64,000 nucleotides of DNA. It comes from Arenicellales bacterium (GTDB lineage Bacteria > Pseudomonadota > Gammaproteobacteria > Arenicellales > CBDCFT01). The position numbers and the translations under genes are program-made. The stretch spans positions 185,106 through 249,105 of the forward strand of contig CBDCFT010000015.1 in the NCBI GenBank assembly GCA_965216365.1, in the 5' to 3' direction. Shown piece after piece: positions 26,477 through 33,600 of this stretch. The stretch's first letter is position 1. The number at the start of each line of letters is the position of its first letter. The notes under the pieces were generated by a model that saw only the letters and a program-made list of their open reading frames with translations, searched no databases and was not told the DNA's origin.

Positions 26477-27768
26477 CGCGTCAGGGGTATCTTTACTTTG
26501 CAATCATGGCCGCGCTCTTGCTGGCCGTTGGTTTCGGTCAGAGCTGGAACGTGGCGCTGGGCATACTCAATCTGTGTCTGATCTCCGCCATAATGTCATT
26601 GGGTGTCAACATTCAATGGGGTTATGCCGGACTGTTTAATGTTGGTGTGATGGGTTTCGCGGCGCTGGGCGGGCTTGCCGCCGTACTCGTTTCCATGCCA
26701 CCGGTCAAAGAAGCCTGGGCGGCTGGCGGCGTGGGCATCGGTTTTTCACTGTTGGCGCTGATCGCAACAGTGATTGCCGTCATCCTGGTGCGGCGCATTA
26801 CGCCTGCGTTCGCGAGGCTTTGGGTAACCATAATCACTATTATCATTGGCTTGTTCATCATTCGCAGCGTGTATGGCCCCGCGGTGGATCGCATTGAAGC
26901 AATCAATCCGGCTCACACCGGTTATCTCGGCGGTTTGCATTTACCCATACTTTTATCGTGGGTCGTCGGCGGCTTCGTGGCCGCGGGTGCGGCCTGGATT
27001 ATCGGAAAGATTTCCCTTGGTCTGCGCGCGGACTATCTTGCGATTGCTACGCTCGGTATTTCCGAGATAATTATTGCCATATTGAAGTACGAAGAATGGC
27101 TAAGCCGTGGCGTAAAAAATGTCACCGGGCTGCCGCGACCCGTACCCTACGAAGTGAATCTTGTACAGTCGGACTGGTTTGTAAAATTCGCTGACTGGTT
27201 TGGCACGGACACTGTCGATACCGCCAGCGTATTCGTGAAACTGTGTTATGCCATTTTGTTTTTAATCGTTCTCGGGTTAATAATGTGGTTTTCCGAAAGC
27301 GCGTTGAAGTCACCCTGGGGGCGCATGATGCGCGCCATCCGTGATAACAGAGATGCCGCCAACGCGATGGGCAAAGATGTCACGCGCAGACATCTGCAAG
27401 TATTCATCTTAGGTTGTGCAGTGTGCGGCATCGCCGGCGCCATGATGACCACACTCGACGGACAACTCACACCTTCGAGTTATATTCCACTGCGTTACAC
27501 ATTTTTAATCTGGGTAATGGTCATCATTGGTGGTTCTGGTAATAACTGGGGCGCCGTGCTCGGTGGATTTGTCATCTGGTTTTTGTGGATTGAGGCCGAA
27601 CCGTTGGGTAACTGGCTGATGCAAATCGTTACCGCGCCCATGGACGACGGCAACTGGCTCAAAGATCACCTCATTGCCAGCGCCGCGTACACGCGCCTAA
27701 TCATGATGGGCGCCATCCTGCTACTAGTCATGCGCTTCGCTCCAAGAGGATTGATTCCGGAACGCTAA
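26473..27768 (+). CDS. Branched-chain amino-acid ABC permease (LivM-like)
   Basis: 431 aa polytopic membrane protein, overlapping livH by 4 nt. Confidence 0.8.
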   Translation: MTRQGYLYFAIMAALLLAVGFGQSWNVALGILNLCLISAIMSLGVNIQWGYAGLFNVGVMGFAALGGLAAVLVSMPPVKEAWAAGGVGIGFSLLALIATVIAVILVRRITPAFARLWVTIITIIIGLFIIRSVYGPAVDRIEAINPAHTGYLGGLHLPILLSWVVGGFVAAGAAWIIGKISLGLRADYLAIATLGISEIIIAILKYEEWLSRGVKNVTGLPRPVPYEVNLVQSDWFVKFADWFGTDTVDTASVFVKLCYAILFLIVLGLIMWFSESALKSPWGRMMRAIRDNRDAANAMGKDVTRRHLQVFILGCAVCGIAGAMMTTLDGQLTPSSYIPLRYTFLIWVMVIIGGSGNNWGAVLGGFVIWFLWIEAEPLGNWLMQIVTAPMDDGNWLKDHLIASAAYTRLIMMGAILLLVMRFAPRGLIPER

Positions 27769-28181
27769 TAAAACTTGGCTTATAGAATCTCTATTAGTAC
27801 AAGAACATTGTAACTACGTGTTGATTTTGGGTACGTCGTACATCGAATAACTTTTCTGATCGACCCATAGCAGTCCGTTTTCCAAAGCTTTGGTGGAGTC
27901 CGCTATCGATCGCATAGCTGCCCTCCCTTTTTCTTTCTTTTGCATTAGGCATTACAGAATTCCAAAGTAGCAACCAAACAATGCATCGTTGCTCAATAAC
28001 CATTGGATCAATCTATAGTGAACACCTGTTATTGTTCAAGCGTTTATGGATAATCACACCCTTTAAGGAATCGAAACCACTCTCATACAAACTCAGAACG
28101 CGTTGTTTGGACACAGCGATGCGGTATTTTTTGATGCTAGGCGCAGTTTAAACTCTTGATACTAGGTAAATTCAAATCTCG

Positions 28182-29957
28182 ATGGAAAAACTCACGGACT
28201 TTAAACCAATCCATAAACTTACACTTCCCGACTTAGGGGAACTAACTTGTTCCGGTCTTACCATCATAGTTGGCCCAAATTCGCCAGGTAAGAGCCAACT
28301 ACTTAAAGACATCAACGAAAAAATAGCTGGCGACCCGCGAGAGTTAGTTGTCGCTGAATCAATTGAGTTGACAAATATCGATTACACAACTTTCTTAAAG
28401 TGCTTAATAACCGAGGGATATTTATCTTCTTTCTGGGACGATAATGATCAAGAGCAGTATATGCCGATGACTACTGCTATAGGTACCGGTCAAGGCGCTC
28501 AACAGGTGGGAACTCAACAACTTGAACAATGGAAAAGTCAGTCTCCAACAGCACATAAACGCAAAAAGAAAGATCAATACTTTGGATGGTTCAGCCGTTT
28601 CCTTGTAACCGCACTATTCTTAGAAAATCGACTCACAAGTATGTCTACCGCAAACACAATAGACTTTGAAACACAGCCTCCTACACACGATTTACATGCC
28701 TTGCACTTACACGACGAGGCTAGAAACGCCCTCACGGAAGAAATACAGCGAGCATTTTCAAAAGCTATTTGGTCCGACATATCTAAAGGTAATCAAATCT
28801 GTCTACGGATCGCTGAAACAGGAAAAGTTCCAAGTGCCGAAGACCGCCTTTCCGTTAAAGAAATGGCGAAGTACAGAACGTTAGCTTCCGAAGGCGATGG
28901 AATGAAATCTTATGTGGCTACCGTCATTTCGCTTCTACTCGGAAGACGCCCGATAAGTGTAATGGACGAACCGGAAATGTGTTTGCATCCACCGCAGGCT
29001 TACAACCTCGGACAATTTATAGGAAAGTCTGCGACTAGCAAGCAAACAAGAACTTTCGTCGCCACGCACAGTAGCCAAATTTTACGCGGCGTCTTACAAA
29101 CGGCTGAAGAGCTTCAAATAGTTCGATTAACAAGAAATCCAACTGGTTTTTCCGCAAAACATGTAGATTCAAAACTGTTAAATGAAGCGTTAAGAAAACC
29201 GACAGTACGAGCTGAAACTGTGCTTGATGGTATATTTGCTCAAGCTGTAGCAGTAGTTGAGGCGGATGGTGATCGGATCGTATATCAGGCAACGTGGGAA
29301 GTCGTTGGACAATCGCGTAATTTCGATATTCATTTTGCGACTACGGGTGGGACAGGCGGGATTTCCGATACATGCAAATTGTACAAAATGTTGGGCATTC
29401 CCGTAGCAGTGATCGCGGATTTAGATCTGATAACTGACTTAGGAAAAATCAAGGTGATCTTGCAGAGCTTAATCGATGACGCTGAAATAGTTGATGAGCT
29501 TGTGAGTACAGGTCATGAATTAGCCGATAAATTACAAAAACTTCCCCCAACTATTTCGGAAGCAGACCTCCACGATAGACTCAAGGAACTAGTACAGGAG
29601 AACTTTATTTGGGTTCAAGGAGATGATCATAAACTCAGACGTGAACTTTCGGGTCTAAGTAACAAACTAAACGGAATGCGGGGATTAAAAGGTGGCGGAC
29701 TTTCCGTACTTCCACTAGATGTTTCAAAACCATTGCTAGAATTGCTAGAGAAATTTCAACGTATCGGGCTATTCTTAGTACCCGTTGGAGAACTTGAATA
29801 TTGGCTACAGGATCATAGTATATCCGCCTCAAAAAAGAAAAAATGGGCCTGGGCTAATGAAGCAGCAGAATTTATAAGAATGAATCAACGACAACAGAAT
29901 GATATCTGGAAATTCATGGAAGATGTGGGAGCCTATTTAACAGGGCAATTCGTTTGA
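28182..29957 (+). CDS. OLD-family ATP-dependent endonuclease-like protein (ABC-type ATPase + TOPRIM)
   Basis: 591 aa. Walker A GPNSPGKSQLL, signature-like GMKS, Walker B ISVMDEPE and H-loop ATHSS. The C-terminal TOPRIM-like region has VAVVEADGDRIVY (E, DxD) and VAVIADLDLITD. The gene is low-GC relative to its flanks. Confidence 0.7.
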   Translation: MEKLTDFKPIHKLTLPDLGELTCSGLTIIVGPNSPGKSQLLKDINEKIAGDPRELVVAESIELTNIDYTTFLKCLITEGYLSSFWDDNDQEQYMPMTTAIGTGQGAQQVGTQQLEQWKSQSPTAHKRKKKDQYFGWFSRFLVTALFLENRLTSMSTANTIDFETQPPTHDLHALHLHDEARNALTEEIQRAFSKAIWSDISKGNQICLRIAETGKVPSAEDRLSVKEMAKYRTLASEGDGMKSYVATVISLLLGRRPISVMDEPEMCLHPPQAYNLGQFIGKSATSKQTRTFVATHSSQILRGVLQTAEELQIVRLTRNPTGFSAKHVDSKLLNEALRKPTVRAETVLDGIFAQAVAVVEADGDRIVYQATWEVVGQSRNFDIHFATTGGTGGISDTCKLYKMLGIPVAVIADLDLITDLGKIKVILQSLIDDAEIVDELVSTGHELADKLQKLPPTISEADLHDRLKELVQENFIWVQGDDHKLRRELSGLSNKLNGMRGLKGGGLSVLPLDVSKPLLELLEKFQRIGLFLVPVGELEYWLQDHSISASKKKKWAWANEAAEFIRMNQRQQNDIWKFMEDVGAYLTGQFV

Positions 29958-30221
29958 TATTTAAATGAAGCGCAATCAGATTAATTCATTATCTTGGTTT
30001 GCCTCTCGTGAATTTTGCTTGCCGATAGATGCCTACTTTTGTATACACACCTGACTCTGTAAAAAGCTACACAAAACGTCAGCTTTTGGCCGCACTGAGC
30101 GCGTCGTAGTCAAAATATGTTTCATTGATAGGTGGATGAATAGGAGAAACACAAACAATCTATGGGCGTGGATGCACTTCCCGAATAGTGAAATCTGACG
30201 TCGGTCGGTATTGCCAATGCT

Positions 30222-30416
30222 TCAGTTATCTTTGGAATAATTATCGGTGACTGATTTCTGTTCGGGTTCGATTACGTTTCTTTCAGAGAAATAGTCGTCA
30301 ATCTCATCTTGTAGTGATTGATTGGCGTTGAATCGTTGTCCGGAACGCGAACGCACGTGAGCACCGCCCTTGCGCATGATGGGCGCCCAGGTGTAGGGGT
30401 TTCTTGGTGCAGGCAT
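30222..30416 (-). CDS. Possible small (64 aa) ORF co-oriented 10 nt downstream of the 313-aa gene
   Basis: MPAPRNPYTW...; a GGAA motif lies 10 nt upstream. No similarity to anything I recognise. Confidence 0.25.
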   Translation of the reverse strand: MPAPRNPYTWAPIMRKGGAHVRSRSGQRFNANQSLQDEIDDYFSERNVIEPEQKSVTDNYSKDN

Positions 30417-30426
30417 TTTCTATTTC

Positions 30427-31368
30427 CTAAAGTGCTAACCGATACCAGTTATGTTGCTTTAATTCACGTTTGCGTTTACGCCCGGCCAGCAAAAATTCTG
30501 GTGGTCGCGAAGTAAGCTGAAAACAGAACTTCTTTGGTAATTGGCTATAAATGGATTTCGGTGGTTTAGCATTGTCGATGCGTTTCAGCGCCGCACCGGA
30601 TTCGTTCGTGTGGTAGTAAATGTTACGAATTCCTATTTCGTCACGAATAAATCGAATCGCAGCGGTAAGCATAGCTTCTGGCCACATCGTTCGATAAGGT
30701 TGCAACACCTGTTCAATATAGGTTTTGATATCTTCTATGTTTCCGTCAATTTTCTTGCGTTGCCAGTACTTTTCCGGTTTGCGGGCGTTTAATAATGGCT
30801 TTAAGTACCAGTCGGCATAACGTAGCCAATCCGATTGAATTTCTTCAATTAGCGCTTCGTCCATGTCAAACTCCAGGTCAATTCGCGCCCAGGCCAGAGT
30901 GTCGCGGTAAAAACCACTACGTTTACGCGTGGCAACCGGATGATACCTATTGTTTAGAAATCCATCGCTCTTGGGTTTGACCAATTGATAGTACTGCTCC
31001 TGATGTTTATTGCTGAAATTGAGTTGCAACACCAGATTGACTCCTTTTCTGGATAACTGATCGTAACGCCAATACTTAGGTCCACCCCATATCGATAGTC
31101 CCAGAAAAAACGATTCACTAGGTTCCTGCCAGTGGTTCAGCAGATCTTCACGCTTTATCTTGCTGCCACCGTAACGCGCGAACGCTTGCTTGACTGTTGG
31201 TTTTTCCAGCAGTTGTGCGAAATCGGTTTTCTTCAGGTCGCTCACACGACTCCCATCGCCCACAGCTTGCGCTAACAACGAAAATGCATAACCATCTTTG
31301 AAATAAAGGAATGGTGTTTTGCCTTTCGGCAGGCAATATCTGATTGCTTTTGCCGTTCGTAGTTTCAT
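30427..31368 (-). CDS. Hypothetical lysine-rich 313-aa protein with no recognisable domain
   Basis: Long low-GC ORF with coding-like composition, convergent with the OLD-like gene. Confidence 0.5.
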   Translation of the reverse strand: MKLRTAKAIRYCLPKGKTPFLYFKDGYAFSLLAQAVGDGSRVSDLKKTDFAQLLEKPTVKQAFARYGGSKIKREDLLNHWQEPSESFFLGLSIWGGPKYWRYDQLSRKGVNLVLQLNFSNKHQEQYYQLVKPKSDGFLNNRYHPVATRKRSGFYRDTLAWARIDLEFDMDEALIEEIQSDWLRYADWYLKPLLNARKPEKYWQRKKIDGNIEDIKTYIEQVLQPYRTMWPEAMLTAAIRFIRDEIGIRNIYYHTNESGAALKRIDNAKPPKSIYSQLPKKFCFQLTSRPPEFLLAGRKRKRELKQHNWYRLAL

Positions 31369-31451
31369 GATTTGTTCGGATTCACTGTCGGCCCGGGCAC
31401 CATTGCCCCGGGCCTCGTCTTTTTCTTATTGTGTCGATCAGTGCTCTTCCC

Positions 31452-32549
31452 TTATTCAGGACGAACATTGATCTTCACAACGTCTTGCATCACACCGTCG
31501 AGACCACCGAAGACTGTTAGACGGTCAACTTTTTCAGTCACCTTTTCCAGCACTTCCAGCTCTTTCAGGCGTAACAATGTCGGGTTGTCATCCATCAGGC
31601 GCGCGGTGTTTAACGCTGACCGTGTGGCCGCGGTTTCCTCGCGTCGTTTGATGACATTCGCCTGGGCGATTTTTTCAGCCTCAACCACCTGGTTGAGAAT
31701 GGCTTTCATTTCACCCGGCAAAATTACGTCCTTGATACCGACACCGTTAACGTCGACGCCGATCTCCACTACTTTGGCACGAACGTTCTCGTATACATTA
31801 CGATCCAGTTCATCCTTGTTGCCCAGCAATGCATCGAGAGTGCGCGCGGCGATGGCCTGACGCACCGCGAATTGCAACTCGCGGTACATGTAGTCCATAA
31901 AACTCGCGACCTGGGTTCGTGCTTTGATGACATCGACCACTTTGTACGACGCTGCCATGTTGACACGCAGACTGACCTTGTCCTTGGTCAGCATTTCCTG
32001 ACCCGAAACTTCCAGGGTTTGTAAACGTGTGTCGATTTGTTCCACCACAATACGTCGGTTGAACTTCCAGAACACATACAAACCCGGTTGCAGTGTTTTG
32101 ATCAATTCGCCGTCCACTAACAGCAAGCCGGTGAACTGATCTGCCACTTCCGCGACATAGGTAAATTCTTTAACTCGTGCTGATAACGCACCGGGTCGTT
32201 GGCGTGCTAACAGTGCAGCAATTTCGCGTGGTACAACGAAATCCTCTGCGATATCGAGTACGTCAACGCGCACGTCAACCGGACCTTTCCAGTACAGTTG
32301 GCGAGTCGCGGGCGGTAATACATCGGTCAATTTGTTGTCCTTGAACACCAGACCCACTTCACGGTCACCGAGCTCAATCACATCAAAGTGTTGCTGCGCT
32401 AGTTGCGGTACTTCTTTGACCAAGAAATCCGCTAACCGGTGTTCAAATTCCGGTACCAGCAAGTCGTACACTTCAATTTGTGTGCGGTTTCCGAAAACCC
32501 AGTAAACACCCGGGCCAACGATATCCTGCACACTTCGATTTTTAATCAA
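31452..32549 (-). CDS. SPFH/band-7 (slipin/flotillin-like) domain protein
   Basis: 365 aa; the C-terminal half ...KDVILPGEMKAILNQVVEAEKIAQANVIKRREETAATR... is a typical SPFH domain. Confidence 0.8.
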   Translation of the reverse strand: MIKNRSVQDIVGPGVYWVFGNRTQIEVYDLLVPEFEHRLADFLVKEVPQLAQQHFDVIELGDREVGLVFKDNKLTDVLPPATRQLYWKGPVDVRVDVLDIAEDFVVPREIAALLARQRPGALSARVKEFTYVAEVADQFTGLLLVDGELIKTLQPGLYVFWKFNRRIVVEQIDTRLQTLEVSGQEMLTKDKVSLRVNMAASYKVVDVIKARTQVASFMDYMYRELQFAVRQAIAARTLDALLGNKDELDRNVYENVRAKVVEIGVDVNGVGIKDVILPGEMKAILNQVVEAEKIAQANVIKRREETAATRSALNTARLMDDNPTLLRLKELEVLEKVTEKVDRLTVFGGLDGVMQDVVKINVRPE

Positions 32550-32682
32550 CAGGCCACGCTCGTTTTACGCAACCACAATTCGTTTGATTCCAAACATTTT
32601 CTTTTCCTGTTTTGGTTGCTAGTTAATATTTTTACGCGGCGATTTCTGACTCGGTGCCCGCAGGCTGCCACTACCGATGTAC

Positions 32683-32955
32683 TTAACTCTTCATTTCTCT
32701 TTCCTCGCGATTACATTTACTAAATTTGCCAAAATTCATTTCAAAGCTCGTCCCACGGTTGCACAGCGGAACACCATGGTCATCAGGGTTGTCAGGCATG
32801 TTGTCTTTTCGTTGTCTTACTTCCCTGTAACGCTTGGCGAATCGAATTCGCTGACAACAATCGGCATTCATGTCTGGCATCGCCTGGCGAGTGCATAGCG
32901 CCCGGGCTACACAACCGTTGTGATTGTCACAATCCCTTGTACGCATCAAGTCCAT
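32683..32955 (-). CDS. Possible 90-aa cysteine-rich hypothetical protein
   Basis: The ORF has a GGTGA SD and 7 Cys. It lies just 3' of the tRNA-like fragments. Weak evidence. Confidence 0.2.
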   Translation of the reverse strand: MDLMRTRDCDNHNGCVARALCTRQAMPDMNADCCQRIRFAKRYREVRQRKDNMPDNPDDHGVPLCNRGTSFEMNFGKFSKCNREEREMKS

Positions 32956-32984
32956 TTGCCAATCACCGGGACTCGCTTACTTTT

Positions 32985-33040
32985 CTTCAATGTGGAGTCG
33001 AACCACAGGCTTGCGCCTTTACCATTGGCGTTTACGGCCA
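32985..33040 (-). other. tRNA 3'-fragment-like sequence (T-arm GTGG-TTCGACT-CCAC plus following bases)
   Basis: GGTTCGACTCC, the reverse complement of the T-loop consensus, is on the minus strand. No matching D-arm, anticodon arm or 5' acceptor strand was found. Confidence 0.3.
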
Positions 33041-33113
33041 AGTTGAGAGCAGGACTCGAACCTGCTACACACCGATTAAACGTCGGTTGCTCTACCCAAT
33101 GAGCTATCTCAGT
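33041..33113 (-). tRNA. tRNA-Lys(UUU)-like sequence, probably a pseudo-tRNA
   Basis: The minus strand reads ACTGAGA-TA-GCTC-ATTGGGTA-GAGC-A-ACCGA-CGTTTAA-TCGGT-GTGTA-GCAGG-TTCGAGT-CCTGC-TCTCAAC-T. The D, anticodon (UUU) and T arms are canonical. Position 33 is G instead of U, the outer two acceptor pairs are mismatched, and there is no CCA. Confidence 0.45.
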
Positions 33114-33255
33114 GGCGTTTGAAACACCGTCATCTGCTCGGTACACGCCGTGCAATTACCCGCTTTAGCGCGTCAGACCGGCATACAGAGCCGGAACCGC
33201 TGAACAGTCACGTTATTTGCAAACACTGTCGTTTGCCCGCTAAAACGCGGGCATA

Positions 33256-33292
33256 AAAAAACCCTGGTGACAGCCGTCTACCAGGGTTTTCA
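33256..33292 (-). terminator. Bidirectional intrinsic terminator (ccctggtgacagccgtctaccaggg flanked by A6/T4; a strong T7 run on the minus strand)
   Basis: A perfect 7-bp stem. Read on the minus strand, a TTTTTTT run follows the hairpin, which would terminate the Rieske oxygenase transcript. Confidence 0.6.
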
Positions 33293-33600
33293 CACTGGAA
33301 GGCGACTCAATACACCTTCCAGAAATATTTTTCGGAAGGTTATGTCATGCCGTCGAACAAGGATTCAATGCGATAAAGCGCATTGCCCATCACTTTGGCT
33401 ATGCTGGCGCTTATGACCGCATTGGGTACTTGTGCTGTTTTGAGGACGCACGCGTCCACCCGCGTCAGTCTGTGGCCGGCGCGATAAACGGACATCAAAT
33501 TTTGTTTTGTTAACCTCATGGGGCGCGGCATTGTAGTGATATAAAAAACGATGTCAACTGCTTTTTTAGCGTTTCTAATGATGGTCGAAAATAAAAAATA

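Follow-up and report, generated by a model that had tools for sequence, protein, structure and literature searches.

We analysed a segment of about 3.7 kb (positions 27769–31451) in a 64,000-nucleotide (nt) stretch of DNA from an Arenicellales bacterium (contig CBDCFT010000015.1; the whole stretch is called the window), which an earlier sequence-only reading had described as one AT-rich island carrying an OLD-family ATPase-TOPRIM nuclease and an uncharacterised convergent partner. The segment is instead probably the place where two unrelated, convergent units meet, a foreign stand-alone OLD gene and the 3' end of an RNA-repair/ribosome-rescue module. The first unit (27769–30221) would be a compositionally foreign, horizontally acquired single-gene insertion. 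The second unit runs tail-to-tail with the OLD gene on the minus strand (33125–30222) and consists of a tRNA-like RNA, an SPFH/Band-7 gene, a 313-amino-acid (aa) protein of GNAT-like fold (G313) and a 64-aa basic peptide; it would represent a horizontally spread RNA-repair/ribosome-rescue neighbourhood in its minimal form, without RtcB.

Base composition and gap sizes divide the segment. The GC content of 27769–30221 is 0.420, the lowest among 616 overlapping 2.45-kb intervals of the 64 kb (mean 0.489, standard deviation 0.029). The OLD gene (28182–29957, plus strand) has a GC content of 0.426 and a third-codon-position GC content (GC3) of 0.358, with GC3 values of 0.53–0.63 in the liv genes. 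On the minus strand, the 313-aa gene (30427–31368; 0.449) and the 64-aa gene (30222–30416; 0.482), which is the last gene of the module, are only mildly low, and the SPFH gene is normal (0.505). The low GC content reported in the sequence-only reading is therefore real but concentrated on the OLD part. Similarly, the AT-rich spacers of about 400 bp that it had placed on both sides of each gene are found upstream of OLD only (413 nt); the other gaps measure 264 nt between the OLD and 64-aa genes, 10 nt between the 64-aa and 313-aa genes, and 83 nt between the 313-aa and SPFH genes. Because the low GC content centres on OLD and the gaps differ from those described, the single island of 27769–31451 was wrongly bounded and is better divided into two units; the positions of the open reading frames (ORFs), of the stop codon of a livM-like permease gene (PF02653) at 27768 and of the SPFH gene are as first given.

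The non-coding spacer 5' of OLD (27769–28181; GC 0.397) belongs to the compositionally foreign segment. It contains ORFs of 69 and 56 aa without Pfam matches and does not resemble the sequences that flank OLD at other loci. The convergent intergenic region from the OLD stop to the 64-aa gene stop (29958–30221; GC 0.417) forms the junction of the two units, and no conserved element in common with other OLD loci was found in it. Neither flanking repeats nor mobility genes were found around the OLD insertion in the window.

The stand-alone OLD gene

The protein of 591 aa truly belongs to the OLD family of ATPase-TOPRIM proteins and is a predicted nuclease. Pfam identifies AAA_21 (PF13304), AAA_15 (PF13175) and OLD-like_TOPRIM (PF20469), the last with a score of 37 bits against a cutoff of 23.2 bits, and the sole solved sequence relative is the class 1 OLD of Thermus scotoductus (Ts OLD, 6p74; 26.5 bits). 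The ATPase residues lie in the Walker A motif GPNSPGK37S, the Walker B motif VMD262E263PE and the H-loop TH296S, and the alignment places these motifs opposite K34 and the H-loop region in Ts OLD. The TOPRIM residues are E360, D364, D413 and D415, which in the alignment to 6p74 occupy the positions of the published Ts OLD metal ligands E377, D381, D431 and D433 (PMC7049728), so that D364 pairs with the metal-B ligand D381 (metal-B set D381, S478 and E480). K37, D262/E263, H296 and all four TOPRIM residues are invariant across a 23-sequence alignment of the subfamily. An invariant G-E537-L-E539 follows strand 530–533 and offers candidate metal-B ligands at the SxE position.

The AlphaFold2 model of OLD (predicted local distance difference test score 85) leads to the same family. 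The top 13 Foldseek matches in the PDB are retron-Eco8 OLD, GajA and Ts OLD (E-values between 4e-9 and 5e-7, probability 1.0), followed by the heads of SMC, RecN and Rad50, and the first ABC transporter appears only at rank 50; identity in the structural alignments is 12–14%. The OLD-family call of the sequence-only reading is thus borne out by Pfam, by 6p74 as the best solved sequence relative and by best structural matches that are all OLD proteins. The motifs it quoted (GPNSPGKS, VMDEPE, THS, EADGD and IADLDL) are all present, and the two findings it had named as damaging to the call were not obtained, as the TOPRIM catalytic residues are in place and the model is not transporter-like. In the model a helical stretch of about 115 aa (residues 414–528; 29421–29765) separates the DxD strand from the next TOPRIM strand, compared with about 45 aa in Ts OLD. 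Together with the C-terminal helices 554–588, this gives the model more helices than the class 1 structure of Ts OLD. Like the class 1 proteins P2 Old, Ts OLD, Vibrio cholerae OLD (Vc OLD) and Escherichia coli YbjD, the window protein keeps the metal-A triad E...DxD and the equivalent of the metal-B aspartate (D364), but it is very distant from them and resembles structures of class 2 and class 3 to about the same degree.

OLD proteins are classified by context, with class 1 comprising single genes, class 2 those with GajB, class 3 those within retrons and class 4 PARIS. Class 1 is defined as a single gene that has no helicase of the UvrD/PcrA/Rep type directly downstream (PMC7049728, PMC10568477). 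No helicase is encoded within 5 kb on either side of OLD, in agreement with the lack of a UvrD-like partner noted from the sequence, and no reverse transcriptase ORF or AriB partner lies near it in the window. PADLOC gives weak, unspecific matches (about 1e-12) to AriA, Old, GajA (6e-12) and retron-type ATPase-Toprim models. The protein therefore shares the ATPase-TOPRIM architecture and a weak GajA match with Gabija (GajA/GajB), but the window lacks a UvrD-like GajB. It likewise shares the architecture and a weak AriA match with PARIS (AriA/AriB), but a DUF4435 AriB is present neither as a separate nor as a fused protein: AriB/DUF4435 is not matched, Pfam giving OLD-like_TOPRIM, and the PADLOC AriAB model covers only residues 260–307. 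Unlike the retron-associated class 3 proteins, the window OLD has no adjacent reverse transcriptase and scores far below the cutoff for the Eco8 effector (NCBIfam retron_eff_Eco8, 34.8 bits against 250). OLD is accordingly class 1 by context, because it is a single gene without helicase, reverse transcriptase or AriB partner, and of the two alternatives left by the sequence-only reading, that of a class 1 OLD standing alone is right. In itself OLD is ordinary, one more divergent member of the known class 1 type.

The OLD subfamily is tight: its members have about 590 aa, and of 470 matches the best 120 are 50–78% identical to the query. Annotated phages and plasmids yielded only matches of at most 29% identity, and a scan of IMG/VR found nothing. 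We compared ten independent OLD-subfamily loci (L006, L007/8, L089, L093/94, L095, L097, L098, L099, L100 and the window). The ten have no conserved flanking gene in common, and blastn and tblastx detected no similarity between the flanks of independent loci. The contexts vary and are often mobile, with toxin-antitoxin modules, insertion sequence elements, a tRNA-Val gene, transposases or resolvases, and phage depolymerase-like genes. A hidden small partner ORF beside OLD was also considered and rejected, the flanks being without blastn or tblastx similarity and the spacer ORFs without Pfam matches.

By analogy with P2 Old, Ts OLD and Vc OLD, the protein would form a homodimeric ABC-type ATPase whose two-metal TOPRIM site would nick or degrade DNA, and it would act as a stand-alone anti-phage nuclease, probably of the abortive-infection type. 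A role outside defence, for example in genome maintenance or the cell cycle as for the archaeal OLD-family ATPase Cran1, appears quite unlikely. The weak and unspecific PADLOC matches are compatible with such a role, as are the absence of any other defence gene near OLD and a non-defence OLD class reported in archaea (PMC12796447), but the composition of the gene is foreign, the contexts of the subfamily are patchy, variable and often mobile, and the bacterial class 1 OLDs tested so far are reported to have anti-phage phenotypes (PMC13261556, among others).

G313 and the basic peptide

The second alternative of the sequence-only reading was an unreported two- or three-gene configuration in which OLD acts with the 313-aa and 64-aa proteins. 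In the window the three genes are adjacent and convergent, and both smaller proteins are unannotated, yet we consider a new defence system of this kind extremely improbable. We collected 80 reference-genome loci with 313-aa homologues, which form the basis of all neighbourhood counts given here, and searched 10 kb around each homologue for OLD. The recurrence of 313-aa homologues beside OLD-like genes, which had been proposed as a check, was not observed at any of the 80 loci, and reciprocally none of the ten independent OLD-subfamily loci carries a 313-aa or 64-aa homologue. The partnership is refuted because co-occurrence is nil in both directions. SPFH is likewise absent from the independent OLD-subfamily loci, except L099. 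Two neighbours of the L093 OLD homologue without Pfam domains (315 and 308 aa) were examined as possible members of the 313-aa family and gave no hidden Markov model match even at E ≤ 10.

The closest relative of the 313/64 pair, locus L005 (313-aa protein 79% identical), contains no OLD. It has GFA, Rieske, tRNA-like, Band_7, 313-aa homologue and 64-aa homologue genes in the same order as the window, with unrelated genes at the place of the window OLD. The convergent orientation of OLD relative to the 313-aa and 64-aa genes is not operonic, and GC content differs between the two parts. The two genes had been taken as cargo of the island; they belong instead with the SPFH and tRNA-like genes on the minus strand.

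When the neighbours of the 80 loci were clustered, identified by Pfam and tabulated as architectures, RtcB was found directly upstream of the 313-aa gene on the same strand at 51 of the 80. SPFH genes of the window type were found on the same strand at 19 loci, RbfA-like genes at 18, HNH endonuclease genes at 10 and PrfH, positioned between RtcB and the 313-aa gene, at seven. At four loci (L049, L063, L064 and L081) the position of the peptide, directly after the 313-aa homologue, is occupied by an ArfB-like protein that is about 140 aa long and carries a GGQ motif and an RF-1 domain. Arrays of 4–23 tRNA genes lie on the same strand upstream of the SPFH/RtcB/313-aa module at about ten loci (among them L015, L023, L028, L031, L059, L063, L069, L085 and L087), usually followed by an HNH gene. 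The window and L005 represent the minimal form, with tRNA-like RNA, SPFH, 313-aa protein and peptide.

These neighbourhoods agree with three lines of published work. A Band-7 protein with a 'b7a-tRNA' beside RtcB was predicted by Burroughs and Aravind in 2016, as cited in bioRxiv 10.1101/312249, and the window matches this arrangement in that a tRNA-like RNA precedes SPFH on its strand, with RtcB adjacent in related loci. It differs in that RtcB is absent from the window, in that the module extends into the GNAT-fold protein and the basic peptide, and in that the RNA is extended on its 3' side by a covarying part that includes a second T-arm. PrfH and RtcB act in ribosome rescue and repair (PMC9304027), accessory genes of such systems have been described (PMC6514570), and at seven loci G313 follows RtcB-PrfH in the manner of the PrfH-RtcB2 pair. 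The long tRNA arrays with HNH upstream of the module recall the cyanobacterial 'L-arrays', which are spread by horizontal gene transfer together with HNH and RtcB and are induced by translational stress (PMC8421152). No name for the GNAT-fold protein or the basic peptide was found in the accessible literature. As a variant of an RNA-repair/ribosome-rescue system that was predicted computationally, the module is under-characterised, and it contains two unannotated protein families.

Neither the 313-aa nor the 64-aa protein matches a Pfam, PADLOC, NCBIfam or PHROG family. G313 is basic (9.9% lysine, 8% arginine, isoelectric point 9.8), in agreement with its description as lysine-rich and without a recognisable domain in the sequence-only reading. 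We found 858 homologues with about 45% identity over the full length, all 'hypothetical' and without a Pfam domain. A profile search of 1.84 billion representatives placed the family in at least 859 clusters at 50% identity, and the best 150 of the 859 clusters listed are all single-domain proteins of about 310–320 aa. The family has no sequence link to any solved structure or remote family, and G313 has no match on annotated phages or plasmids.

We conclude that G313 has a divergent GNAT-like fold. The GNAT core fold is present, with about 190 residues beyond those of the superfamily in an N-terminal helical part and inserted helices. Pfam detects no GNAT match to G313, and Foldseek gives no significant one. 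In GNAT enzymes, acetyl-CoA motif A has the form Q/R-x-x-G-x-G/A and lies at the β4-α3 junction. This loop is absent from G313 and is replaced by an invariant QSDW(L/I/V)R: the junction of strand 171–178 and helix 180–194 carries the invariant EEIQSDW, then (L/I/V)R, and contains no glycines. G313 would modify or bind a damaged translation component, either the ribosome or the end of a tRNA or aminoacyl-tRNA.

The 64-aa peptide has a conserved and very basic N-terminal core, RNPxxxxPxxRKGGxHxxSxxxxR (isoelectric point 12), followed by a variable acidic or hydrophobic tail. Its family comprises more than 1,215 clusters at 90% identity, all 'hypothetical' or unnamed. A peptide homologue occurs at 45 of the 80 loci, at 37 of them directly downstream of the 313-aa homologue, but never together with PrfH or ArfB-like genes (0/11 where about six are expected; hypergeometric P = 4e-5, without correction for phylogeny). 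The peptide and PrfH/ArfB-like genes are mutually exclusive, and this suggests that the peptide fills the same functional slot, with a ribosome-rescue-type role in which it would promote the release of stalled ribosomes. In its small size and high basicity the peptide recalls the tails of rescue factors; unlike ArfA and ArfB, it has no ArfA homology, GGQ motif or mRNA hairpin. ArfA (PF03889) matches none of 26 members of the peptide family at E ≤ 10, and a profile search of the PDB with the family returned no ArfA match. An identity with ArfA was ruled out by the absent Pfam and PDB homology and hairpin, leaving room for functional analogy.

A variant of the peptide, RNPLHxHPLMRKGGVHEKSxKxKRRxEKQKLKxEW, lies inside or beside tRNA arrays rather than after the 313-aa gene at L023 (3531–3674), L031 (5080–5400), L028 (4512–4820) and, upstream of the 313-aa homologue, at L026, L027, L040 and L041.

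The SPFH gene and the tRNA-like RNA

The SPFH gene (31452–32597, minus strand) encodes a Band_7 protein (PF01145, 1.5e-27) that is 41% identical to the Band_7 protein of the rtcR-rtcB locus L099. Its longest ORF (31452–32549) starts at a TTG codon at 32549. The ancestral start is an ATG at 32597, from which it is separated by an in-frame TAA at codon 11 (32565–32567). The L005 orthologue, which reads MFGVKRIVVAQNERGLLIKNRS, has CAA (Gln11) at this position, and a restart at TTG 32549 costs about 16 N-terminal residues. The stop could reflect a nascent pseudogene, reinitiation or a sequencing error.

Upstream of SPFH lies a tRNA-like non-coding RNA of the 'b7a-tRNA' type (32985–33125, minus strand), identified by ARAGORN, Rfam and covariation. 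ARAGORN calls a cloverleaf tRNA-Lys(UUU) at 33041–33113 on the minus strand, with an Rfam tRNA score of 48.8 bits, in which the two pairs at the top of the acceptor stem do not match and a CCA is not encoded. On its 3' side the cloverleaf is followed by two hairpins and by a second T-arm-like hairpin (TGTGGTTCGACTCCACA, 32991–33007), an extension seen in about 12 of 16 loci. The tRNA-like gene lies 150–520 nt upstream of SPFH at no fewer than 15 loci, where the anticodons vary between Met, Ile, Thr, Lys and aberrant loops. Between the window and L005 the anticodon stem shows compensatory substitutions and the loop is not conserved. In a 13-locus alignment that includes the 3' extension, 96.5% of cells are paired, compared with 77.4% after shuffling, and compensatory changes occur in 20 of 29 pairs. 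The alignment reaches a covariation score of 0.543, where shuffles give 0.157 (0/500 as high) and slid controls 0.06–0.11. The tRNA-like RNA is an RNA of the module, and not an ordinary decoding tRNA or integration site. The SPFH protein and the tRNA-like RNA would serve the module as scaffold and cofactor.

A genuine tRNA-Lys gene would offer a different view of the region, with the stretch from SPFH to OLD (27769–33040) forming one genomic island inserted at it. The tRNA-Lys(UUU) call does border this stretch, and the GC contents of OLD and G313 are both below average. Against this, no integrase is present and the 3' end of the tRNA is repeated nowhere in the window, the tRNA-like gene accompanies SPFH at 15 or more other loci with changing or aberrant anticodons, its acceptor stem is mismatched at the top and lacks CCA, and the GC content of SPFH is normal. 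We therefore regard a single tRNA-borne island as very unlikely. A search for att-type repeats or the boundaries of a tRNA-integrated island likewise found none in the window.

The spacer of about 490 nt between the tRNA-like RNA and SPFH (32550–33040, minus strand) is about 86% identical to that of L005 in long blocks. It contains the palindromes TTGTGACAATCACAA and GCGAATTCGATTCGC (for example at 32918–32932) and a conserved block right before the SPFH start. The conserved blocks may represent operators, a leader or a further non-coding RNA. Upstream of the tRNA-like gene we also observed a 63-aa ORF without a Pfam match (33340–33531, minus strand), preceded by the only strong sigma-70-like site of the region (TTGACA-16-TACAAT, 11/12; 33530–33557). 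A strong hairpin with a T-run terminator (about 33250–33290) follows this ORF, just upstream of the tRNA-like gene.

OLD genes near RNA-repair genes

Several observations weigh against a junction of two unrelated units that includes a working repair module. At three of the ten OLD-subfamily loci (the window, L093 and L099) OLD lies within 6 kb of RtcB or Band-7 genes, a proximity that would not be expected of two strictly independent units and that is far above random placement, which we estimate at under 1% per locus. No empty-site relative of the OLD insertion was found, so the insertion is not directly demonstrated. RtcB, RbfA-like, HNH and PrfH genes are all absent from the 64-kb window, which makes it uncertain that the minimal module functions in repair here. 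The in-frame stop in SPFH may indicate that the module is decaying, if it is not a sequencing error. Finally, the peptide has no detectable homology to ArfA, and its gene contains no ArfA-like mRNA hairpin (folding z-score −0.43).

The three loci differ in their layout. In the window the OLD gene and the module are convergent. In L099 (4276–11776; also L096) the OLD homologue lies co-directionally 915 nt downstream of rtcR, while the opposite strand carries RtcB, two tRNA-like genes and Band_7; the tandem tRNA-like genes have the anticodons AAA and AUU and an extra T-arm hairpin. In L093, RtcB is flanked by HigB/HTH pairs and lies 4.3 kb, about six genes, from the OLD homologue. A functional tie between the OLD subfamily and Rtc/Band-7 repair loci, in which the repair module would buffer or reset a damage response triggered by OLD or in which both would share RtcR regulation, is unlikely in our assessment. 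The presence of repair genes at three of ten loci speaks for such a tie, and the association is not one inherited arrangement, since the layouts differ and identity between the L093 and L099 RtcB proteins is only 60%. A 1974 study by Bregegere, listed among the references of PMC12392090, also reportedly links P2-lambda interference, which is attributed to P2 Old, to tRNA inactivation. However, the three geometries are dissimilar, the seven other OLD loci have no repair genes, and none of the 80 repair-type loci has OLD. OLD and repair genes are, moreover, both mobile 'conflict' genes that may share hotspots, and the sample is small. Because the three geometries differ and the L093 and L099 RtcB proteins are only 60% identical, we favour shared hotspots of mobile conflict genes as the explanation of the proximity.

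The junction of a foreign stand-alone OLD gene with an RNA-repair/rescue module thus remains our preferred interpretation of the segment. In it the identities of the genes, the fold, the neighbourhood statistics and the covariation of the RNA are results, and all biochemical activities as well as the defence role of OLD are inferred. A more far-reaching proposal, which we offer as speculative and hold to be possible rather than probable, is that G313 and the peptide form the core of a widespread RtcB-linked system for the rescue and repair of ribotoxin-damaged translation, that the peptide represents a new class of rescue factor interchangeable with PrfH and ArfB, that Band-7 and a tRNA-like RNA of about 150 nt with two T-arms form its scaffold, and that the OLD clade is preferentially recruited to repair loci. 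Such recruitment, if true, would link DNA-nuclease defence to RNA repair.

For the discovery of defence systems the segment provides a caution, in that an unannotated convergent neighbour mimicked a multi-gene system and two-way neighbourhood statistics say otherwise. The OLD gene is useful mainly as a distinct clade in which the function of a lone OLD can be tested, and the neighbouring module is of greater interest. It contains two sizeable unannotated families embedded in RtcB, PrfH, Band-7 and tRNA-array neighbourhoods, and for bacterial RNA repair and ribosome rescue, which are poorly understood, it raises testable ideas about an enzyme of GNAT fold that lacks the acetyl-CoA loop, about a peptide that may stand in for PrfH or ArfB, and about a tRNA-like RNA with an extension.

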